Part shown: piece after piece, positions 6,233-39,902 of the stretch
How positions within the stretch are numbered: the stretch's first letter is position 1
How the letters are laid out: each line of letters starts with the position of its first letter
Origin: Escherichia coli
Lineage (GTDB): Bacteria; Pseudomonadota; Gammaproteobacteria; Enterobacterales; Enterobacteriaceae
Assembly (NCBI RefSeq): GCF_003790525.1
Contig: NZ_CP033635.1
Length of the DNA stretch: 64,000 bases
Reading direction: 5' to 3' (one strand)
The notes under the pieces: model-generated
Database searches by the model: none
The model's input: the letters and a program-made list of their open reading frames with translations, nothing else
What the model was told of the DNA's origin: nothing
Position numbers and translations under genes: made by a program

Positions 6233-7664
6233 GCCATTTCAGCGCCCGTTTTCGCTGGCAACCCGTCTGACCTTTTTTATCAGCCTGGCCACCATCGCGG
6301 CGTTTTTCGCCTTTGCATGGATCATGATCCACTCGGTAAAAGTGCATTTTGCCGAGCAGGATATTAATGATTTAAAAGAGATTAGCGCCACCCTTGAACG
6401 GGTACTTAATCACCCTGACGAAACGCAAGCCCGACGCTTAATGACGCTGGAAGATATCGTCAGTGGTTATTCCAACGTGTTGATTTCTCTGGTAGATAGC
6501 CACGGTAAAACGGTGTATCACTCCCCCGGTGCGCCGGATATCCGCGAGTTTGCACGTGATGCCATACCCGATAAAGACGCTCGGGGCGGCGAGGTGTATC
6601 TCCTTTCCGGCCCGACAATGATGATGCCAGGCCACGGTCACGGACATATGGAACACAGCAACTGGCGGATGATTAACTTGCCGGTTGGCCCGCTGGTGGA
6701 CGGCAAACCGATTTATACGCTCTACATCGCGCTGTCTATCGATTTTCATCTTCATTACATTAATGATTTGATGAATAAACTTATTATGACCGCATCGGTA
6801 ATCAGCATTCTGATCGTCTTTATCGTGCTGTTGGCGGTACATAAAGGTCACGCGCCGATCCGCAGCGTCAGCCGTCAAATCCAGAACATTACCTCGAAAG
6901 ATCTCGACGTTCGCCTCGATCCACAGACCGTGCCCATTGAACTCGAACAACTGGTGCTGTCGTTCAACCATATGATCGAGCGTATTGAGGATGTCTTTAC
7001 CCGCCAGTCCAATTTCTCAGCGGATATCGCCCACGAAATTCGTACACCAATTACGAATCTCATAACGCAAACGGAAATCGCCCTCAGCCAGTCGCGCAGC
7101 CAGAAGGAGCTGGAAGATGTGCTCTACTCTAATCTCGAAGAGCTGACGCGAATGGCGAAAATGGTCAGCGATATGTTGTTTCTCGCCCAGGCCGATAACA
7201 ACCAGTTAATCCCCGAAAAGAAAATGCTCAACCTGGCGGATGAAGTCGGCAAAGTGTTCGATTTTTTCGAGGCGTTAGCGGAAGATCGCGGCGTGGAGTT
7301 GCGGTTTGTTGGTGACGAGTGTCAGGTTGCGGGCGATCCGCTGATGTTGCGTCGGGCGTTAAGCAACCTACTTTCTAATGCCCTGCGTTATACGCCAACC
7401 GGAGAGACAATTGTCGTGCGCTGCCAGACGGTCGATCACCTGGTGCAAGTTACCGTCGAAAACCCTGGTACGCCCATTGCGCCTGAGCACTTACCGCGAT
7501 TGTTTGACCGTTTCTACCGCATTGATCCTTCCCGCCAGCGAAAAGGCGAAGGTAGCGGTATTGGCCTGGCGATAGTGAAATCGATTGTTGTCGCGCATAA
7601 AGGCACGGTTGCGGTAACGTCAGATGCGCGGGGAACAAGGTTTGTTATCATATTACCCGCTTAA
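6222..7664 (+). CDS. cusS: CusS, copper-sensing histidine kinase
   Basis: ORF contains [19 protein letters not shown] with two TM segments and an HK core (HEIRTPIT); start chosen at the ATG at 6222, overlapping the cusR 3' end by 11 bp. Confidence 0.88.
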
Positions 7665-7813
7665 TCCTTCAGCAAACGGCAACTTTTATAACCAGTGTAA
7701 AAATAACGTGCCGCAATAATCCTACCTATTAATGATAAAAAGCTGTCACAATTCATAAAAAACTTTAATATACGCCACCCTAAACATAACCAGCGTTAAT
7801 GTAAGGTTTTTGT

Positions 7814-10051
7814 GTGGACTGGCTTCTTGATGTTTTTGCTACCTGGCTCTACGGCTTAAAAGTAATCGCGATAACGTTAGCGGTCATCATGTTCATCAGC
7901 GGGCTGGACGATTTTTTTATTGATGTCGTCTACTGGGTACGCCGCATTAAACGCAAGTTGAGTGTTTATCGCCGCTACCCGCGAATGAGTTACCGCGAAC
8001 TGTATAAACCAGATGAAAAACCGTTAGCGATTATGGTTCCGGCGTGGAATGAAACGGGCGTCATCGGCAATATGGCCGAGCTGGCGGCGACCACGCTCGA
8101 CTACGAAAACTATCATATCTTTGTTGGCACCTACCCCAACGACCCCGATACTCAGCGTGATGTTGACGAAGTGTGCGCTCGCTTCCCGAACGTGCATAAG
8201 GTAGTCTGCGCGCGTCCTGGCCCCACCAGCAAAGCCGACTGTCTGAACAACGTGCTGGACGCCATCACCCAATTTGAACGTAGCGCCAATTTCGCTTTTG
8301 CTGGTTTTATTCTGCATGACGCCGAAGATGTGATTTCACCGATGGAATTGCGTCTGTTCAACTATCTGGTCGAGCGTAAAGATCTGATTCAGATCCCAGT
8401 GTATCCGTTCGAACGCGAATGGACGCACTTCACCAGCATGACTTACATTGATGAGTTTTCAGAACTGCATGGCAAAGATGTTCCGGTGCGTGAAGCCCTC
8501 GCCGGACAGGTGCCCAGCGCAGGCGTCGGCACCTGTTTCAGCCGCCGCGCCGTGACCGCTCTGTTAGCTGACGGTGACGGTATTGCTTTCGACGTGCAGA
8601 GTCTGACTGAAGATTACGATATTGGCTTCCGCCTGAAAGAAAAAGGTATGACGGAAATTTTTGTCCGTTTTCCGGTGGTGGACGAAGCCAAAGAACGCGA
8701 GCAGCGTAAATTTTTACAGCACGCACGGACGTCAAACATGATCTGCGTGCGCGAATATTTCCCCGATACCTTTTCGACTGCGGTTCGACAAAAATCTCGC
8801 TGGATCATCGGCATTGTTTTCCAGGGCTTTAAAACCCACAAATGGACCTCCAGCCTGACGCTGAACTACTTTCTCTGGCGCGACCGCAAAGGGGCAATCA
8901 GTAACTTTGTCAGCTTCCTCGCGATGCTGGTGATGATCCAGCTTTTGCTGTTACTGGCGTATGAAAGTTTGTGGCCCGATGCCTGGCATTTCCTTTCTAT
9001 TTTCAGCGGCAGCGCATGGTTAATGACCCTGCTGTGGCTAAACTTTGGTTTGATGGTTAACCGCATCGTGCAGCGGGTGATTTTTGTCACTGGCTACTAC
9101 GGTCTGACGCAGGGGCTGCTATCTGTCCTGCGTCTTTTCTGGGGTAACCTGATTAACTTCATGGCCAACTGGCGCGCGTTAAAACAGGTACTTCAACACG
9201 GCGATCCGCGTCGAGTGGCGTGGGATAAAACAACGCATGACTTCCCCAGCGTGACTGGCGATACCCGCTCGTTGCGCCCGTTAGGTCAAATCCTGCTGGA
9301 AAATCAGGTCATCACTGAAGAACAACTCGATACAGCACTGCGTAATCGCGTCGAAGGTCTACGCCTGGGCGGTTCAATGCTGATGCAGGGGCTGATTAGC
9401 GCCGAGCAACTGGCACAGGCGCTGGCAGAGCAAAACGGCGTGGCGTGGGAATCCATCGATGCCTGGCAGATCCCTTCCTCGCTGATTGCCGAAATGCCGG
9501 CCTCCGTGGCGCTGCATTATGCGGTACTGCCGCTGCGTCTGGACAATGATGAGTTAATTGTCGGCAGTGAAGATGGTATTGACCCGGTTTCGCTGGCGGC
9601 CCTGACGCGTAAAGTCGGACGCAAAGTGCGTTACGTCATTGTTCTGCGGGGACAAATTGTCACCGGATTACGCCACTGGTATGCACGCCGACGCGGTCAC
9701 GATCCGCGGGCAATGTTGTACAATGCAGTTCAGCATCAGTGGCTCACGGAACAGCAGGCCGGTGAAATCTGGCGGCAATATGTGCCGCATCAGTTCCTGT
9801 TCGCCGAAATACTGACCACGCTCGGTCATATTAATCGTTCAGCAATTAACGTGTTGTTATTGCGCCATGAACGCAGTTCTCTGCCGCTCGGCAAGTTTTT
9901 GGTCACCGAAGGCGTTATCAGCCAGGAAACGTTGGATCGCGTCCTGACAATTCAACGCGAATTACAAGTTTCGATGCAATCACTATTACTCAAAGCAGGT
10001 TTAAACACAGAAAAGGTTGCGCAACTGGAGTCCGAAAATGAAGGAGAATAA
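7814..10051 (+). CDS. nfrB: NfrB, inner-membrane family-2 glycosyltransferase (phage N4 adsorption protein B)
   Basis: 745-aa ORF MDWLLDVFATWLYG; the first codon is GTG; 3' end overlaps nfrA. Confidence 0.9.
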   Translation: MDWLLDVFATWLYGLKVIAITLAVIMFISGLDDFFIDVVYWVRRIKRKLSVYRRYPRMSYRELYKPDEKPLAIMVPAWNETGVIGNMAELAATTLDYENYHIFVGTYPNDPDTQRDVDEVCARFPNVHKVVCARPGPTSKADCLNNVLDAITQFERSANFAFAGFILHDAEDVISPMELRLFNYLVERKDLIQIPVYPFEREWTHFTSMTYIDEFSELHGKDVPVREALAGQVPSAGVGTCFSRRAVTALLADGDGIAFDVQSLTEDYDIGFRLKEKGMTEIFVRFPVVDEAKEREQRKFLQHARTSNMICVREYFPDTFSTAVRQKSRWIIGIVFQGFKTHKWTSSLTLNYFLWRDRKGAISNFVSFLAMLVMIQLLLLLAYESLWPDAWHFLSIFSGSAWLMTLLWLNFGLMVNRIVQRVIFVTGYYGLTQGLLSVLRLFWGNLINFMANWRALKQVLQHGDPRRVAWDKTTHDFPSVTGDTRSLRPLGQILLENQVITEEQLDTALRNRVEGLRLGGSMLMQGLISAEQLAQALAEQNGVAWESIDAWQIPSSLIAEMPASVALHYAVLPLRLDNDELIVGSEDGIDPVSLAALTRKVGRKVRYVIVLRGQIVTGLRHWYARRRGHDPRAMLYNAVQHQWLTEQQAGEIWRQYVPHQFLFAEILTTLGHINRSAINVLLLRHERSSLPLGKFLVTEGVISQETLDRVLTIQRELQVSMQSLLLKAGLNTEKVAQLESENEGE

Positions 10052-13010
10052 CCTTAATCGCGTCATCGGATGGTCTGGTTTACTGCTGACGTCTTTATTG
10101 AGTACCAGCGCACTCGCAGACAATATCGGCACCAGCGCAGAAGAGCTGGGGCTGAGCGATTATCGCCATTTTGTTATTTATCCCCGTCTCGACAAGGCGC
10201 TGAAGGCACAGAAAAATAACGACGAAGCAACCGCCATCCGCGAATTTGAATATATACACCAACAGGTGCCGGATAATATTCCACTAACTTTATACCTTGC
10301 GGAAGCCTATCGCCATTTTGGTCATGATGACCGGGCGCGGCTGTTGCTTGAGGATCAACTGAAACGTCACCCAGGAGATGCCCGACTTGAGCGCAGTCTG
10401 GCGGCTATTCCAGTTGAAGTGAAAAGCGTTACGACTGTTGAAGAACTGCTTGCCCAGCAAAAAGCGTGCGACGCTGCGCCGACCCTGCGTTGTCGCAGTG
10501 AAGTTGGGCAGAATGCCCTGCGGCTGGCACAATTACCTGTCGCCAGAGCGCAACTGAACGATGCGACGTTTGCTGCATCGCCGGAAGGAAAAACGCTGCG
10601 AACCGATCTGCTGCAACGCGCAATCTACCTGAAACAATGGTCCCAGGCAGATACGCTATACAATGAAGCACGCCAGCAGAACACATTAAGCGCGGCAGAA
10701 CGCCGCCAGTGGTTTGATGTGCTTCTTGCCGGGCAGCTGGACGATCGGATCCTGGCGCTGCAATCACAGGGGATCTTCACCGATCCGCAGTCATATATTA
10801 CTTACGCGACCGCGCTGGCTTATCGTGACGAAAAAGCACGCCTCCAGCGTTATCTCATTGAAAATAAGCCGCTGTTTACCACGGACGCACAAGAGAAAAG
10901 TTGGCTCTATCTGTTATCTAAATACAGCGCCAACCCCGTTCCGGCGTTGGCGAATTATACGGTACAGTTTGCCGATAACCGCCAGTATGTTGTTGGCGCG
11001 ACGCTACCGGTGCTGTTAAAAGAAGGTCAGTACGACGCAGCGCAAAAACTGCTCGCCACCCTCCCCGCCAATGAAATGCTTGAGGAGCGTTATACCGTTA
11101 GCGTAGCGACCCATAACAAGGCTGAAGCTCTGCGTCTGGCACGATTGCTGTATCAGCAAGAACCGGCAAATCTTACCCGCCTGGATCAACTGACCTGGCA
11201 ACTGATGCAGAACGAGCAGTCACGCGAAGCTGCCGATTTATTGCTGCAACGCTATCCTTTCCAGGGCGATGCGCGTGTCAGCCAGACGTTAATGGCGCGA
11301 CTGGCGTCTCTGCTGGAAAGTCATCCTTACCTGGCAACGCCGGCGAAGGTGGCGATTTTATCGAAACCCTTACCGCTGGCGGAGCAACGTCAGTGGCAAA
11401 GTCAGTTGCCGGGTATTGCAGATAATTGCCCGGCTATAGTTCGCTTGCTGGGCGATATGTCGCCTTCCTACGATGCCGCCGCCTGGAACCGTCTGGCAAA
11501 GTGTTATCGGGACACGCTACCCGGTGTGGCGTTGTATGCATGGCTTCAGGCCGAACAACGACAACCGAACGCCTGGCAACATCGTGCGGTAGCCTATCAG
11601 GCGTATCAGGTTGAGGACTACGCCACCGCACTGGCGGCCTGGCAGAAAATCAGTCTTCACGACATGAGCAATGAGGATCTGCTTGCTGCTGCCAATACCG
11701 CCCAGGCGGCAGGAAATGGCGCAACTCGCGATCGCTGGCTTCAGCAGGCAGAACAACGTGGGCTGGGAAACAATGCCCTCTACTGGTGGCTGCATGCGCA
11801 ACGTTACATTCCTGGTCAGCCGGAACTCGCACTGAACGATCTCACGCGCTCAATCAATATTGCGCCTTCTGCCAACGCTTACGTTGCGCGGGCGACAATT
11901 TATCGCCAACGTCATAATGTCCCGGCGGCGGTGAGTGATTTGCGCGCCGCGCTGGAACTGGAACCGAATAATAGCAACACCCAGGCAGCGCTCGGTTACG
12001 CCTTGTGGGATAGCGGTGATATCGCACAGTCGCGGGAAATGCTCGAACAGGCGCATAAAGGGCTACCGGACGATCCGGCACTTATCCGACAACTGGCCTA
12101 CGTGAACCAGCGTCTGGATGACATGCCTGCGACGCAGCACTACGCCCGGCTGGTGATTGATGACATTGATAATCAGGCGCTGATAACCCCACTGACCCCA
12201 GAGCAAAATCAGCAACGCTTCAATTTCCGCCGTCTGCATGAGGAGGTCGGTCGCCGCTGGACGTTCAGTTTCGATTCTTCTATCGGCTTGCGTTCCGGCG
12301 CAATGAGTACCGCTAACAATAATGTCGGCGGCGCAGCGCCAGGGAAAAGCTATCGTAGCTACGGGCAACTGGAAGCCGAGTATCGCATCGGACGCAATAT
12401 GCTGCTGGAAGGCGACCTGCTCTCGGTTTACAGCCGTGTATTTGCCGATACCGGAGAAAACGGGGTGATGATGCCGGTGAAAAATCCGATGTCCGGCACC
12501 GGTCTGCGCTGGAAGCCGCTGCGCGATCAGATCTTTTTCCTCGCCGTCGAACAGCAGTTGCCGCTGAACGGCCAAAATGGTGCATCCGATACCATGCTGC
12601 GCGCCAGCGCCTCATTCTTTAATGGCGGCAAATACAGCGACGAATGGCACCCGAACGGTTCAGGCTGGTTTGCCCAAAACCTGTACCTCGATGCAGCGCA
12701 ATATATCCGCCAGGATATTCAGGCGTGGACGGCAGATTATCGCGTCAGCTGGCATCAGAAGGTAGCTAACGGACAGACTATTGAGCCTTACGCTCACGTT
12801 CAGGACAACGGCTATCGTGATAAAGGCACTCAGGGCGCGCAGCTTGGCGGTGTCGGGGTCCGCTGGAATATCTGGACCGGCGAGACGCACTACGACGCCT
12901 GGCCGCACAAAGTCAGTCTCGGCGTCGAGTATCAACATACCTTTAAGGCGATTAATCAACGTAACGGAGAGCGCAACAATGCGTTTCTCACCATTGGAGT
13001 GCACTGGTAA
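10038..13010 (+). CDS. nfrA: NfrA, outer-membrane protein with TPR-like repeats (phage N4 receptor)
   Basis: ORF with MKENNLNRVIGWSGLLLTSLLSTSALA signal peptide, about 990 aa; start at 10038 overlaps the nfrB stop. Confidence 0.9.
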   Translation: MKENNLNRVIGWSGLLLTSLLSTSALADNIGTSAEELGLSDYRHFVIYPRLDKALKAQKNNDEATAIREFEYIHQQVPDNIPLTLYLAEAYRHFGHDDRARLLLEDQLKRHPGDARLERSLAAIPVEVKSVTTVEELLAQQKACDAAPTLRCRSEVGQNALRLAQLPVARAQLNDATFAASPEGKTLRTDLLQRAIYLKQWSQADTLYNEARQQNTLSAAERRQWFDVLLAGQLDDRILALQSQGIFTDPQSYITYATALAYRDEKARLQRYLIENKPLFTTDAQEKSWLYLLSKYSANPVPALANYTVQFADNRQYVVGATLPVLLKEGQYDAAQKLLATLPANEMLEERYTVSVATHNKAEALRLARLLYQQEPANLTRLDQLTWQLMQNEQSREAADLLLQRYPFQGDARVSQTLMARLASLLESHPYLATPAKVAILSKPLPLAEQRQWQSQLPGIADNCPAIVRLLGDMSPSYDAAAWNRLAKCYRDTLPGVALYAWLQAEQRQPNAWQHRAVAYQAYQVEDYATALAAWQKISLHDMSNEDLLAAANTAQAAGNGATRDRWLQQAEQRGLGNNALYWWLHAQRYIPGQPELALNDLTRSINIAPSANAYVARATIYRQRHNVPAAVSDLRAALELEPNNSNTQAALGYALWDSGDIAQSREMLEQAHKGLPDDPALIRQLAYVNQRLDDMPATQHYARLVIDDIDNQALITPLTPEQNQQRFNFRRLHEEVGRRWTFSFDSSIGLRSGAMSTANNNVGGAAPGKSYRSYGQLEAEYRIGRNMLLEGDLLSVYSRVFADTGENGVMMPVKNPMSGTGLRWKPLRDQIFFLAVEQQLPLNGQNGASDTMLRASASFFNGGKYSDEWHPNGSGWFAQNLYLDAAQYIRQDIQAWTADYRVSWHQKVANGQTIEPYAHVQDNGYRDKGTQGAQLGGVGVRWNIWTGETHYDAWPHKVSLGVEYQHTFKAINQRNGERNNAFLTIGVHW

Positions 13011-13901
13011 ATGCGTAAGTTCATTTTCGTATTGCTGACACTGCTTTTGGTCAGCCCTTTTTCCTTTGCGATGAAAGGTATTATCTGGCAACCACAAAAC
13101 CGTGATAGTCAGGTTACCGATACCCAGTGGCAGGGGCTGATGAGTCAGTTACGTTTGCAAGGCTTCGATACCCTGGTTTTGCAATGGACTCGTTACGGCG
13201 ATGCATTCACCCAGCCAGAACAGCGCGCGTTATTGTTTAAGCGTGCCGCAGCTGCGCAACAGGCTGGCCTGAAGCTGATTGTCGGGCTGAATGCCGATCC
13301 GGAATTTTTTATGCACCAGAAACAGTCGTCTGCAGCGCTGGAAAGCTATCTTAACCGCCTGCTGGCTGCCGATCTCCAGCAAGCCAGATTATGGAGCGCC
13401 GTACCTGGCGTAACGCCGGATGGCTGGTACATCAGCGCGGAAATTGACGACCTGAACTGGCGCAGCGAAGCCGCCCGTCAGCCTTTGCTAACATGGTTAA
13501 ACAACGCGCAGCGGTTGATTAGCGATGTTTCAGCAAAACCGGTTTATATCAGTAGTTTTTTCGCCGGAAACATGTCGCCCGATGGCTATCGCCAACTGCT
13601 GGAACACGTTAAAGCAACCGGCGTTAATGTCTGGGTACAGGATGGCAGCGGCGTGGATAAACTGACCGCTGAACAGCGTGAACGCTATCTACAGGCCAGC
13701 GCCGATTGCCAAAGCTCCGCCCCAGCAAGCGGCATTGTTTATGAACTGTTTGTCGCCGGCAAAGGCAAAACCTTTACAGCGAAACCGAAACCGGACGCAG
13801 AAATTGCCTCGCTGTTAGCGAAACGTTCCTCTTGCGGTAAAGACACGCTCTATTTCTCTCTGCGCTATTTGCCCGTCGCGCACGGCATTCTCGAGTATTA
13901 A
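13011..13901 (+). CDS. ybcH: YbcH, periplasmic protein of the nfr locus
   Basis: 296-aa ORF with signal peptide MRKFIFVLLTLLLVSPFSFA; its ATG directly abuts the nfrA stop codon. Confidence 0.85.
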   Translation: MRKFIFVLLTLLLVSPFSFAMKGIIWQPQNRDSQVTDTQWQGLMSQLRLQGFDTLVLQWTRYGDAFTQPEQRALLFKRAAAAQQAGLKLIVGLNADPEFFMHQKQSSAALESYLNRLLAADLQQARLWSAVPGVTPDGWYISAEIDDLNWRSEAARQPLLTWLNNAQRLISDVSAKPVYISSFFAGNMSPDGYRQLLEHVKATGVNVWVQDGSGVDKLTAEQRERYLQASADCQSSAPASGIVYELFVAGKGKTFTAKPKPDAEIASLLAKRSSCGKDTLYFSLRYLPVAHGILEY

Positions 13902-14083
13902 ATCTCCTCCAGGTAAGTCGGGTACGACCTGGCTTACCTCTTTCGCTCTCGTCAGAATTCCATCAAGATTAATTGCTAAAAAGCGTGCTAAAGAAAGAAG
14001 ATCGTTATCGGCGAACGGGCCGATCACTCATGCAGGAAGCATAGATCCTTTGAGCGGAGTTTCTGATATCTGAGGAGTGCGAA

Positions 14084-14845
14084 ATGCAATTGAGCAGCAG
14101 TGAACCTTGCGTGGTGATCCTGACCGAAAAAGAGGTAGAGGTAAGCGTCAATAACCATGCTACGTTTACCCTTCCGAAAAACTACCTGGCCGCCTTCGCG
14201 TGCAACAATAACGTCATTGAACTCTCAACGTTAAATCACGTATTAATCACCCACATCAACCGTAACATCATCAACGATTATCTGTTGTTTTTAAATAAGA
14301 ACTTAACCTGTATAAAGCCCTGGTCGCGGCTGGCAACTCCGGTTATCGCTTGTCATAGCCGTACACCGGAAGTGTTCCGGCTAGCCGCCAACCACAGCAA
14401 GCAGCAACCCAGCAAACCCTGCGAAGCGGAGTTGACGCGCGCATTGCTTTTTACCGTATTGTCTAACTTTCTTGAGCAATCGCGGTTTATTGCCCTACTG
14501 ATGTATATCTTACGCAGCAGCGTCCGCGACAGCGTCTGCCGCATTATTCAAAGCGATATTCAGCATTACTGGAATCTGCGAATTGTCGCCAGTTCGCTAT
14601 GTTTAAGCCCCAGCCTGCTCAAAAAGAAATTAAAAAACGAAAATACCAGCTATAGCCAGATTGTCACAGAGTGTCGTATGCGTTACGCCGTACAGATGTT
14701 ATTGATGGATAACAAAAATATCACTCAGGTAGCGCAATTATGTGGCTATAGCAGCACGTCGTACTTTATCTCTGTTTTTAAGGCGTTTTACGGCCTGACA
14801 CCGTTGAATTATCTCGCCAAACAGCGACAAAAAGTGATGTGGTGA
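14084..14845 (+). CDS. envY: EnvY, AraC-family transcriptional regulator
   Basis: 253-aa ORF with a C-terminal AraC-type HTH (ITQVAQLCGYSSTSYFISVFKAFYGLTP). Confidence 0.85.
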   Translation: MQLSSSEPCVVILTEKEVEVSVNNHATFTLPKNYLAAFACNNNVIELSTLNHVLITHINRNIINDYLLFLNKNLTCIKPWSRLATPVIACHSRTPEVFRLAANHSKQQPSKPCEAELTRALLFTVLSNFLEQSRFIALLMYILRSSVRDSVCRIIQSDIQHYWNLRIVASSLCLSPSLLKKKLKNENTSYSQIVTECRMRYAVQMLLMDNKNITQVAQLCGYSSTSYFISVFKAFYGLTPLNYLAKQRQKVMW

Positions 14846-14890
14846 AGGGCAAAGCGGAAACGGATAAGACGGGGATAAATGAAGAAGAAA

Positions 14891-14967
14891 TGGCGCGCCC
14901 TGCAGGATTCGAACCTGCGGCCCACGACTTAGAAGGTCGTTGCTCTATCCAACTGAGCTAAGGGCGC
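14891..14967 (-). tRNA. argU: tRNA-Arg, anticodon UCU (argU)
   Basis: Reverse complement reads GCGCCCTTAGCTCAGTTGGATAGAGCAACGACCTTCTAAGTCGTGGGCCGCAGGTTCGAATCCTGCAGGGCGCGCCA: cloverleaf with anticodon loop CUUCUAA and 3' CCA. Confidence 0.93.
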
Positions 14968-15208
14968 GTTGATACCGCAATGCGGTGTAATCGCGTGAAT
15001 TATACGGTCAACCCTTGCTGAGTCAATGGCTTTTGATCTGGTTGCTGAACAAGTGAACGACCGCGTCTGATTTTCTGATTTATTTCGTTATAGCGGCAAA
15101 CAAACGCACACCGCTGCGCGTCTGAATCAAGAAAACCCGTATTTTCATGTATCAAGTACAATTTCCCGCCCTAACGGAAAATTGTCCGATCCAATGAGAC
15201 TGGTAACT

Positions 15209-37747: not shown

Positions 37748-38019
37748 TATCAATCCTTTTTCAACAAATTATTCGATGCGTTCCCACGGAATAAGATTAT
37801 CCATAAGAACAGCCAGTAAAATTCCGACCAGTAAGCCGTTACTGAGCAGAGGACGAAGCGTTAATGGAAGGTCTTGCAGATACACAGGCGGTAATGCCAT
37901 TAAAAATATGCCGACAAATAACGGCAATGCGAGTCGATAAATATTGCGAGCGGTAAACGTTATTTGCTGGCTAAACACCAGCGCGGAAAAGAGTAAAGGC
38001 AGATGGTAATGACTCCAAC

Positions 38020-38523
38020 TTACTGATAGTGTTTTATGTTCAGATAATGCCCGATGACCTTGTCATGCAGCTCCACCGATTTTGAGAACGACAGTGACTT
38101 CCGTCCCAGCCTTGCCAGATGTTGTCTCAGATTCAGGTTATGCCGCTCAATTCGCTGAGTGTAACGCTTGCTGATTACGTGCAGCTTTCCCTTCAGGCGG
38201 GATTCATACAGCGGCCAGCCATCCGTCATCCATACCACGACCTCAAAGGCCGACAGCAGGCTTAGAAGACGCTCCAGTGTGGCCAGAGTGCGTTCACCGA
38301 ATACGTGCGCAACAACCGTCTTCCGGAGCCTGTCATACGCGTAAAACAGCCAGCGCTGGCGCGATTTAGCCCCGACGTATCCCCACTGTTCGTCCATTTC
38401 CGCGCAGACGATGACGTCACTGCCCGGCTGTATGCGCGAGGTTACCGACTGCGGCCTGAGTTTTTTAAATGGCGGAAAATCGTGTTGAGGCCAACGCCCA
38501 TAATGCGGGCGGTTGCCCGGCAT
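38020..38523 (-). CDS. insB: InsB, IS1 transposase catalytic ORF (expressed by -1 frameshift as InsAB')
   Basis: 167-aa [54 protein letters not shown]. Confidence 0.95.
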
Positions 38524-38717
38524 CCAACGCCATTCATGGCCATATCAATGATTTTCTGGTGCGTACCGGGTTGAGAAGCGGTGTAAGTGAACTGCAGTTG
38601 CCATGTTTTACGGCAGTGAGAGCAGAGATAGCGCTGATGTCCGGCGGTGCTTTTGCCGTTACGCACCACCCCGTCAGTAGCTGAACAGGAGGGACAGCTG
38701 ATAGAAACAGAAGCCAC
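38442..38717 (-). CDS. insA: InsA, IS1 repressor/transposase N-terminal protein
   Basis: 91-aa [43 protein letters not shown] (zinc-finger plus HTH). Confidence 0.95.
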
Positions 38718-39902
38718 TGGAGCACCTCAAAAACACCATCATACACTAAATCAGTAAGTTGGCAGCATCACCAAGGCAGATAAGAAACCAACATGACCGC
38801 GCTACTCACCGGTAAAGGGATACTGCAAAACAGTCGTGTGAGTGCCGGAACCAGTGCCACCAGCAGGCAAATAACGCTGCCATAAATAAACGATCGTCGC
38901 GTGTAATCGCCAGTCTGGGTTAATAAACCAATGGATGAAACAAACGGTGAAAATGGAATTACCGCCAGCGGCACGGTTATCAGCGTCATAAATCCGGTCG
39001 CCACAAAGCTGCGACGATAACGCGTATTCCCCGCGCCCTGTTGCGGATAAAAAACATCCGTGCCACGAATCGCACCGTAGGTATTGCTGATATTTACCAG
39101 ACCTGTAATCACCGCCGTCAGAATAATCCCCGGCGACAAAGCACCGCCACTGCCGAGCGGGAACCACTGCCAGTGCAACTCACCGGAGAGCGAATGCGAA
39201 GAAGGAAAGCAAAAGTACCACAACAACCAGCCGGTTATCGTACCGACCAGCAGGCCATAACGGGCAAAACGTTGCGGCAGGAAGATAATCATCGCCAGTA
39301 CCAGGCACATCACCGCCACCGAGAGCGCGAACGGCGGTAACTGAATTTTAAAATTCGGGTCGGCTATGCCAAACGGCAGCCCGAGCATACCTTTGAAAAA
39401 GATAGTGGTCAGCTGCGCGCCCAGCATCAACATAAACAAGACCATCACCGACGGCGTAAATAACCGCGCCAGACGATGACCTAATCCGCTAAAACCAATC
39501 AACATCGTCAGCACGCCAGAGAGCGCAATTCCCACCGCCAGGCTGGTAGCGATATCGTTGATCGGTGTCCCGCGCGATGCTTCGCCAAGGGTGATAGTCA
39601 GGATGGTTCCCCACCACAGGCCACCCGGCCCTTCCATAATAGCGCGACGATGACCGCAGAACGCCTGAGCGAAGCAGGCCAGTGCGGTAGCAAGAAAAGC
39701 ATATTGCGTGAGCGTAAGCAGGCTACTTTGCGGCAACTGAAAAGCAGAAAGTAGCGTAGGAGGAACCACAACCGTGTTGCAAAAAATAAAGAAAAACCAC
39801 TGAAATCCTGATAACAGGCTTTCGCGGCCCACTGCAAAATTGAACATAAACACACCTTAACCGGAGAATGCCCGCCACAAGGACGGGCATTGCAGGGCCA
39901 GA

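Follow-up and report, generated by a model that had tools for sequence, protein, structure and literature searches.

Identity of the locus

Positions 7814-13901 of the window, the 64,000-nucleotide stretch of DNA analyzed here, almost certainly carry an intact Escherichia coli nfrB-nfrA-ybcH operon, whose products form a synthase-dependent exopolysaccharide system for production of the N4 glycan receptor (NGR). Between 7600 and 14100 the sequence matches the annotated nfrB-nfrA-ybcH locus of E. coli SMS-3-5 without a single difference (100% identity), and positions 1-50000 of the window match the SMS-3-5 genome at 99.998% identity. The genes and elements of the locus mapped below lie on the plus strand.

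The locus comprises: nfrB (7814..10051, 745 aa); nfrA (10038..13010, 990 aa); and ybcH (13011..13901, 296 aa). Each product scores above its NCBIfam equivalog cut-off (NF008411, 1332 bits against 1170; NF007302, 1886 against 1223; NF007404, 522 against 344), so these are real genes and not chance ORFs. None of the three reading frames is interrupted by a stop codon, and the differences from K-12 are confined to two residues in NfrB (E577D and Q734K), 11 in NfrA and five in YbcH. Start codons and coordinates are the same in the RefSeq annotation of the SMS-3-5 locus and of K-12 MG1655. The Pfam and NCBIfam domain content is also that of the known system: GT2 and MshEN in NfrB; TPR and NfrA_C in NfrA; and DUF4434 with an N-terminal signal sequence in YbcH. 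No sequence was found that contradicts assignment to the known operon. An Rfam scan of 7400-15200 returned nothing except a tRNA-Arg.

The locus is present in 5340 of 5426 complete E. coli genomes and contiguous in 5047. The operon itself is already known, because its main features were published in 2021: the operon organization, the 14-nt overlap, c-di-GMP binding, activation by DgcJ, dependence on WecB and ManNAc, and the minor role of YbcH (PMC8669469, PMC8669472). The present result is a correct annotation of that published operon in one further E. coli strain and adds nothing to the field.

Translation initiation and gene junctions

The sequence-only reading of this DNA had proposed that nfrB initiates at GTG, and the raw sequence, the ORF list and the RefSeq start in both SMS-3-5 and K-12 bear this out. 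The GTG is the sole possible start because on its 5' side the frame is blocked by a TAA at 7802-7804, no other ATG, GTG or TTG occurs before codon 26, and NfrB residues 5-25 are conserved at the protein level across seven distant homologues. Initiation at Met26 was ruled out because these conserved residues are also part of the first hydrophobic segment. A Shine-Dalgarno-like AAGG (7803..7806), read from the sequence and the same in K-12, lies 7 nt 5' of the GTG. The 149-nt cusS-nfrB spacer has four differences from K-12, none of them close to the Shine-Dalgarno or the start. The GTG start would fit the low expression reported for nfrB.

Although FliA dependence has been published, the sequence upstream of nfrB yielded no consensus promoter for sigma-28 or sigma-70; this includes a sigma-70 consensus scan of the 149-nt spacer. 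The best sigma-28 (FliA) candidate, an 11/16 match within the end of cusS, was rejected as uninformative, as equal scores occur about 160 times in the window.

The two junctions proposed in the same reading, a 14-bp overlap of nfrB with nfrA and an nfrA stop abutting the ybcH ATG, are both present. The overlap spans 10038-10051 (ATGAAGGAGAATAA), beginning with the nfrA ATG at 10038, and is drawn in Fig. 1B of the published K-12 work (PMC8669469, PMC8669472). The nfrA stop (TAA, 13008-13010) is followed directly by the ybcH ATG at 13011. A TTG at 10017 was considered as an alternative nfrA start; the ATG at 10038 is favored by RefSeq and by a full-length NCBIfam alignment (1-990/990).

This geometry suggests the translational coupling of nfrB, nfrA and ybcH that the sequence-only reading had proposed; the three genes would be translated as a tightly packed unit off one mRNA. 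A competing account, which we consider improbable though by no means negligible, is that the overlaps reflect ordinary genome compaction and matter neither for coupling nor for stoichiometry, with every gene initiating independently from its own Shine-Dalgarno. Both downstream genes do possess a GGAG, read from the sequence: one at 10027..10030, within the nfrB coding sequence and 7 nt 5' of the nfrA ATG; the other at 12996..12999, in the last nfrA codons (...GVHW, then the stop) and 11 nt 5' of the ybcH ATG. Bacterial operons often contain overlaps of 1-14 nt, and overlap length varies here as well, with nfrB/nfrA ranging from -14 (E. coli) to +1 and nfrA/ybcH from -4 to +8 in relatives. Arguing against simple compaction, tight juxtaposition is found in 8/8 loci spanning Enterobacterales and Xanthomonadales, and the authors of the K-12 work positioned a FLAG tag so as not to cause polar effects on nfrA initiation (PMC8669469).

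Comparison with seven distant YbcH loci (Rhodanobacter, Rouxiella, Pragia, Pluralibacter and three metagenomic) suggests which part of this arrangement is maintained. The order nfrB-nfrA-ybcH is kept in all seven, with junctions of -8 to +8 nt, and a similar tGGGAGt..cattggTAATG junction precedes ybcH in relatives. The conserved feature is the tight juxtaposition and not the 14-nt overlap itself. A WecB-like epimerase adjoins the locus in four of the seven.

Catalysis and c-di-GMP sensing by NfrB

The GT2 catalytic domain of NfrB occupies aa 70-382 (8021..8959; Pfam Glyco_tranf_2_3, E 3.5e-35; Glyco_trans_2_3, E 2.1e-40). The active-site residues of a processive glycosyltransferase are all retained, namely D169, TED265-267 and QKSRW326-330 (QxxRW). 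In K-12 NfrB, D169A, D267A and W330A each abolish N4 plating (PMC8669469).

Searching the NfrB C-terminus for a c-di-GMP-binding domain, as the sequence-only reading had advised, identified an MshEN domain at aa 489-628 (9278..9697; NCBIfam c-di-GMP_motif, aa 489-540, E 6e-19; Pfam MshEN, aa 542-628, E 3e-14). An MshEN domain is defined by two tandem 24-residue motifs (R/P-L-G-x2-L-L-x2-G-L-I-x4-L-x3-L-x2-Q) followed by an alpha/beta subdomain. NfrB has this architecture, with motifs at aa 489-512 and 517-540, and keeps the c-di-GMP-binding residues L490, G491, L518, G519 and L537. Its phmmer matches include the c-di-GMP domains of PilF, PilB and MshE (including 5htl, MshE).

[quoted passage not shown] Binding of c-di-GMP by the MshEN domain was shown experimentally in 2021: the fragment 414-745 binds with a Kd of ~1 uM. 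N4 plating is lost in point mutants of the GT and MshEN domains, and DgcJ, which co-purifies with NfrB, is a specific requirement (PMC8669469, PMC8669472).

Downstream of this domain lies a second, half-degenerate MshEN-like motif pair (9884..10039), consisting of aa 691-714 (PLGKFLVTEGVISQETLDRVLTIQ) and a degenerate half at aa 720-742. Only the first half-motif conforms to the MshEN pattern, and the pair on its own scores 28.6 bits with the NCBIfam c-di-GMP_motif model (E 8.7e-7), under the 38-bit cut-off. Profile alignment of NfrB aa 485-545 with aa 652-745 (hhalign) gives a probability of 96.6% and an E of 6.4e-10, and the pair is kept in 8/8 homologues. At its end it runs into the ribosome-binding site and start codon of nfrA.

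NfrA, the NGR polymer and N4 sensitivity

NfrA carries a signal peptide, Pfam TPR_19 and TPR_14 repeats, and NfrA_C (aa 809-977, E 1e-67). This is consistent with the outer-membrane TPR and beta-barrel protein described in PMC8669469 and PMC8669472, as the sequence-only reading had also assigned it.

The mechanism published for K-12 is as follows. NfrB, an inner-membrane protein, polymerizes a sugar polymer whose postulated feeder is WecB, and it does so once its cytoplasmic MshEN domain has bound c-di-GMP made available locally by DgcJ. NfrA is reported to be needed together with NfrB to bring the polymer to the surface; a published proposal from modeling is that it acts as a TPR-plus-barrel export pore. 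Since WecB is the one member of the ECA pathway that is needed, a ManNAc-based polymer has been postulated (PMC8669469, PMC8669472). The earlier description of the polymer as poorly defined holds insofar as no chemical structure of NGR was found in the searchable literature; it needs qualifying insofar as this composition has been postulated from the WecB dependence. A search for a structure of NfrB found none either.

In K-12, the NGR polymer is the primary receptor of N4 and several other phage groups; the N4 tail sheath binds NfrA itself. The requirement of nfrA and nfrB for N4 adsorption, also claimed from the sequence, agrees with the published work (PMC8669469, PMC8669472). The classical model of 1989-2009 instead held that NfrA and NfrB are purely protein receptors, without a glycan. 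In its favor, N4 gp65 binds NfrA directly (cited in PMC8669469). Against it, NfrB mutants in the GT catalytic site or in c-di-GMP binding abolish N4 plating without lowering NfrB levels, N4 needs WecB alone of the ECA pathway, and the NfrB catalytic motifs are intact here. For K-12, the mutants published in 2021 have refuted the pure protein-receptor model, and there is very little chance that it applies to this locus.

With NGR as receptor, the proposal that an intact locus predicts N4 sensitivity stands in part. The locus is intact; this is a necessary condition only, since N4 sensitivity further depends on DgcJ, WecB and low PdeL activity. In some strains, O-antigen can mask the glycan. The dgcJ, wecB, pdeL and O-antigen loci all lie outside the window. 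N4-like, Vequintavirus and phi92-like phages use NGR as their primary receptor, so an intact nfrBA is one necessary marker in host-range prediction for therapeutic phages. The practical relevance of the locus is modest.

A predicted hydrolase fold in YbcH

YbcH is a DUF4434 protein, and its placement by the sequence-only reading as a periplasmic accessory agrees with PMC8669469 and PMC8669472. There it is dispensable for N4 and needed only partly for the motility phenotype; a 2025 droplet RB-TnSeq preprint finds that ybcH contributes partially to N4 infection. The published view, stated in PMC8669469 and repeated in a 2023 review (PMC10211494), is that YbcH is a non-catalytic periplasmic scaffold, anchored in the inner membrane, that merely bridges NfrB and NfrA. 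Its authors describe YbcH as membrane-anchored and without a signal-peptidase site (PMC8669469).

The sequence and the predicted structure both bear on this view. A signal peptide is predicted at aa 1-20 (13011-13070), and the -3/-1 positions satisfy the signal peptidase I rule in 44/44 homologues, which argues against anchoring; YbcH would be secreted and then cleaved by signal peptidase I. The AlphaFold2 model (pLDDT 92.6) contains eight beta/alpha units and forms a (beta/alpha)8 barrel of the glycoside-hydrolase type, not a BcsB-like scaffold. The C-terminal ends of the barrel strands account for 26% of the protein and contain 25 of the 37 invariant positions of the mature sequence (p ~1.5e-7). 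These invariant residues, among them two Glu and four Asp, cluster on the predicted catalytic face.

In clan GH-A, a catalytic Glu ends strand 4 (acid/base, usually preceded by Asn) and another ends strand 7 (nucleophile). In the YbcH model, an invariant Glu is found at the end of each of these strands: E144 in strand 4 (138-146) and E245 in strand 7 (241-245). Residue 143 is Ala, so that strand 4 ends in Ala-Glu where clan GH-A typically has Asn-Glu. Compared with clan GH-A (4/7 superfamily) glycoside hydrolases and BT_0435 (PDB 4h41), YbcH shows 7-15% sequence identity and no sequence-level match. Foldseek matches to the model include generic TIM-barrel enzymes (epimerases, aldolases), with TM-scores of only ~0.5. 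A PDB search with the single sequence gave no match, and a 44-sequence profile gave only a chance match to a designed protein (E=2).

Further points favor a scaffold. A permissive Pfam scan (E <= 10) matched DUF4434 alone and no glycoside hydrolase family, the PgaB C-domain was long viewed as a non-catalytic binding module, and the phenotypes of ybcH deletion are only partial. Partial phenotypes are also typical of periplasmic hydrolases in other synthase-dependent systems (BcsZ, PslG, AlgL), and we count this against the scaffold, which we regard as doubtful. Judged on the predicted fold, YbcH looks more like a sugar-cutting enzyme than a scaffold.

If YbcH is a periplasmic glycoside hydrolase, as predicted, it would trim or release the polymer, as a counterpart of BcsZ, PslG, PelA or the PgaB C-domain. 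Trimming or release would account for a protein that helps the system yet can be dispensed with. No literature on DUF4434, or on YbcH as a hydrolase, was found. Our tentative proposal, held at somewhat less than even confidence, has two parts: YbcH may be the founding member of a GH-A-like glycoside hydrolase family (DUF4434), a soluble periplasmic enzyme and not an anchored scaffold, that cleaves or trims the ManNAc-based NGR; and the second MshEN-derived module of NfrB (aa 691-742) may aid c-di-GMP sensing or autoinhibition. A YbcH hydrolase specific for the NGR polymer would represent a new glycoside hydrolase family and, if real, would be a tool to release and characterize the polymer.

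Ten nucleotides 3' of the ybcH stop lies a 13-bp hairpin (13911..13939), with an RNA fold of -19.1 kcal/mol (z -3.5; 0/200 shuffles as stable). It has a weak U-tract and is a candidate operon terminator or 3' stabilizer. A consensus terminator scan did not detect it; that scan returned more terminator-like sites within genes than in shuffles, none meaningfully placed.

Comparison with known systems

The closest system is that of K-12. Gene set, order, start codons, the 14-nt overlap and the flanks (cusS upstream, envY downstream) are the same, and differences within the locus are strain-level polymorphisms only. Further downstream, K-12 carries the DLP12 prophage with appY and ompT; this is absent here, and envY therefore abuts tRNA-Arg.

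Relative to other MshEN/GSPII-A proteins, NfrB aa 487-625 align with the domains of MshE, PilB and T. thermophilus PilF (E 5e-17 to 2e-5) and share their tandem 24-residue motifs. In NfrB this domain is fused to a glycosyltransferase, whereas in MshE, PilB and PilF it is fused to a secretion ATPase. Unlike these proteins, NfrB carries the further half-degenerate motif pair after its MshEN.

Among synthase-dependent exopolysaccharide systems, Nfr shares the defining domain content: an inner-membrane GT2 synthase with an attached c-di-GMP receptor and a co-encoded outer-membrane TPR/beta-barrel porin, the gene trio being kept in 7/7 distant loci. A periplasmic enzyme that cleaves or modifies the polymer may be represented by YbcH, with its predicted glycoside-hydrolase-like fold and conserved acidic pocket. 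The c-di-GMP receptor differs, being MshEN in Nfr as opposed to PilZ (BcsA, cellulose), the PgaCD interface (PNAG), PelD (Pel) or Alg44 (alginate). Unlike cellulose BcsA/B/C/Z, the E. coli Nfr system has no BcsB-like subunit. It also departs from the Bcs, Pga, Pel and alginate systems in its substrate, which is thought to be UDP-ManNAc, and in its accessory protein, which belongs to DUF4434, a family without a characterized member.

Gene layout and identity of the operon

Three co-directional genes on the + strand are read from the ORF list and raw sequence of the window: nfrB (7814-10051; GTG start, 745 aa), nfrA (10038-13010; ATG start, 990 aa) and ybcH (13011-13901; ATG start, 296 aa). The nfrB and nfrA genes overlap by 14 nt (ATGAAGGAGAATAA), and the nfrA TAA runs into the ybcH ATG with a gap of 0. 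The GTG start, the 14-nt overlap and the abutting ybcH ATG had been noted in the sequence-only reading, and each is borne out. The GTG is the sole possible nfrB start, as an in-frame TAA (7802-7804) lies three codons upstream, the next in-frame start is Met26, and residues 5-25, which belong to the first hydrophobic segment, are retained in seven homologues (61-76% identity). Shine-Dalgarno-like elements are found 7 nt 5' of the nfrB GTG (AAGG), 7 nt 5' of the nfrA ATG (GGAG) and 11 nt 5' of the ybcH ATG (GGAG).

The same genes, at the same coordinates, appear in the RefSeq annotation, with cusRS upstream and envY downstream. All three products score above their NCBIfam equivalog cut-offs (NfrB, 1332 against 1170 bits; NfrA, 1886 against 1223; YbcH, 522 against 344), and Pfam assigns GT2 and MshEN to NfrB, TPR and NfrA_C to NfrA, and DUF4434 to YbcH. 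Gene lengths, start codons and overlaps all equal those of K-12 MG1655; the proteins differ from K-12 at 2 (NfrB), 11 (NfrA) and 5 (YbcH) amino acids, with no stop codons. NfrB retains D169, TED265-267, QKSRW326-330, L490, G491, L518, G519 and L537. Positions 7600-14100 match E. coli SMS-3-5 and a dozen further strains at 100% identity, and positions 1-50000 match SMS-3-5 at 99.998%. The operon is genuine and intact, its identification is correct, and it is already known: Junkermeier & Hengge 2021 (Fig. 1B; PMC8669469) described nfrBA-ybcH, including the overlap of 14 nt.

Among 5426 complete E. coli genomes, the locus is present in 5340 and contiguous in 5047; in about 290 it is partial or fragmented, and 86 have no match. 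In strain HS4 (NZ_CP142035.1), it is matched in two pieces across ~7.8 kb rather than 6.5 kb, and an IS3-family transposase is annotated within that span. This appears to be a natural IS3-family insertion in or beside the operon. Separately, many RefSeq/PGAP records, including SMS-3-5, label nfrB as 'nrfB' (product 'NrfB'). Since nrfB designates a nitrite-reductase cytochrome gene unrelated to nfrB, the label appears to be a misnaming passed on from record to record.

Downstream, envY (14084-14845) directly precedes tRNA-Arg(TCT) (14891-14967, - strand). In K-12, by contrast, envY is adjoined on the tRNA-Arg side by DLP12, a cryptic prophage that carries appY and ompT; the tRNA-Arg site here is therefore unoccupied and ompT absent at this position. 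Farther along, the SMS-3-5 annotation places an IS1 (~38020-38717) splitting a uracil/xanthine transporter gene at about 37769-39847, coordinates that are converted from the SMS-3-5 record.

Coupling and transcript signals

The geometry of the junctions suggests that the three genes may be translationally coupled. Seven distant loci, collected through YbcH homologues (Rhodanobacter, Rouxiella, Pragia, Pluralibacter and three metagenomic contigs), all keep the order nfrB-nfrA-ybcH, with junctions of -8 to +1 nt (nfrB/nfrA) and -4 to +8 nt (nfrA/ybcH). What is conserved is thus tight juxtaposition, not the 14-nt overlap. Nor is the GTG start conserved: of eight loci (the seven relatives and the one here), six use ATG.

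A hairpin at 13911-13939 (13 bp, -19.1 kcal/mol, z -3.5), 10 nt past the ybcH stop and followed by a weak U-tract, may end the operon transcript as a candidate terminator; it was missed by a consensus terminator scan. Rfam returned nothing around the operon besides the nearby tRNA. Expression is reported as low and FliA-dependent, and the operon as a class 3 unit (PMC8669469), yet the 149-nt cusS-nfrB spacer (7665-7813) holds no consensus sigma-70 or sigma-28 promoter.

Relation to phage N4 sensitivity

The Nfr biology cited in the sequence-only reading agrees with the domain content, the K-12 comparison and both primary papers. N4 plating is lost in NfrB glycosyltransferase-site mutants (D169A, D267A, W330A) and MshEN mutants (G491L); DgcJ, which co-purifies with NfrB, is a specific requirement; and N4 can do without YbcH, which the motility phenotype needs only in part (PMC8669469). 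Sellner et al. 2021 (PMC8669472) named the Nfr product the N4 glycan receptor (NGR) and postulated a ManNAc-based polymer because WecB is the only ECA-pathway member needed. They also reported protection from N4 by PdeL, N4 sensitivity of UTI89 in spite of O-antigen and capsule, and use of NGR by Vequintavirinae and phi92-like phages. Four of the seven distant loci carry an adjoining WecB-like UDP-GlcNAc 2-epimerase gene, and one locus (L008) has a CBS-PAS-GGDEF-EAL gene as divergent neighbour. These neighbours agree with published phylogenomics (PMC8669469) and would fit both ManNAc as the substrate and a c-di-GMP control dedicated to the system.

Later work confirmed that N4 depends mainly on nfrA, nfrB, wecB and dgcJ; ybcH contributes in part. 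In one O157:H7 background NGR is seemingly masked by O-antigen, and the nfr loci are identical across the strains of that study. The prediction of N4 sensitivity from an intact locus holds as a necessary condition and not as a sufficient one; the co-factors lie outside the window.

A second MshEN-like motif pair in NfrB

The anticipated c-di-GMP-binding domain is present: NfrB 487-625 is homologous to the corresponding domains of PilF, PilB and MshE, and its known MshEN motifs lie at 489-512 and 517-540. A second, half-degenerate MshEN-like tandem motif is predicted at the extreme C-terminus (aa 691-742; window 9884-10039, + strand). Residues 691-714 (PLGKFLVTEGVISQETLDRVLTIQ) match the 24-residue consensus as closely as the first motif or more so, and 720-742 form the degenerate partner. 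The NCBIfam c-di-GMP motif model matches 691-742 with E 8.7e-7, below its cut-off when this segment is scored alone; profile-profile alignment (hhalign) relates the two motif segments with 96.6% probability (E 6.4e-10). The second pair is kept in 8/8 homologues, and the end of the DNA that encodes it runs into the nfrA start codon and the ribosome-binding site before it. The fragment with a published Kd of about 1 uM for c-di-GMP (NfrB 414-745; PMC8669469) spans both copies, and the searched text of PMC8669469 and PMC8669472 makes no mention of the second. This putative duplicated module is a modestly novel computational lead.

YbcH as a candidate hydrolase

In the literature, YbcH is a putative scaffold without a signal-peptidase site (PMC8669469, PMC10211494); a hydrolase is not mentioned in either primary paper, and the literature searched yielded nothing on what DUF4434 does. 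At YbcH aa 1-20 (window 13011-13070), SFA|M fits a signal peptidase I site. Across 44 homologues, the predicted cleavage site has Ala at -1 in every case and A, S, V or T at -3 in every case. Judged by these residues, the site is a classic one for signal peptidase I, which would be at odds with the published claim that YbcH lacks such a site (PMC8669469).

The AlphaFold2 model predicts a (beta/alpha)8 barrel. The C-terminal ends of its strands make up 26% of YbcH and hold 25 of the 37 invariant positions of the mature protein (p about 1.5e-7), including E144 (end of strand 4) and E245 (end of strand 7). Foldseek matches include non-hydrolase TIM barrels, and PDB sequence, profile and permissive Pfam searches linked YbcH to none of the glycoside hydrolase families at the sequence level. 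The conserved pocket and the predicted signal peptidase I site suggest that YbcH may sooner be a polymer hydrolase, soluble in the periplasm, than a scaffold, a modestly novel computational lead that would fit the partial ybcH phenotype. The positions of E144 and E245 match those of the acid/base and nucleophile of clan GH-A, a correspondence of strand position rather than residue-level superposition, and strand 4 carries Ala-Glu where clan GH-A typically has Asn-Glu. Such a hydrolase would be analogous to BcsZ, PslG, PelA or the PgaB C-domain.
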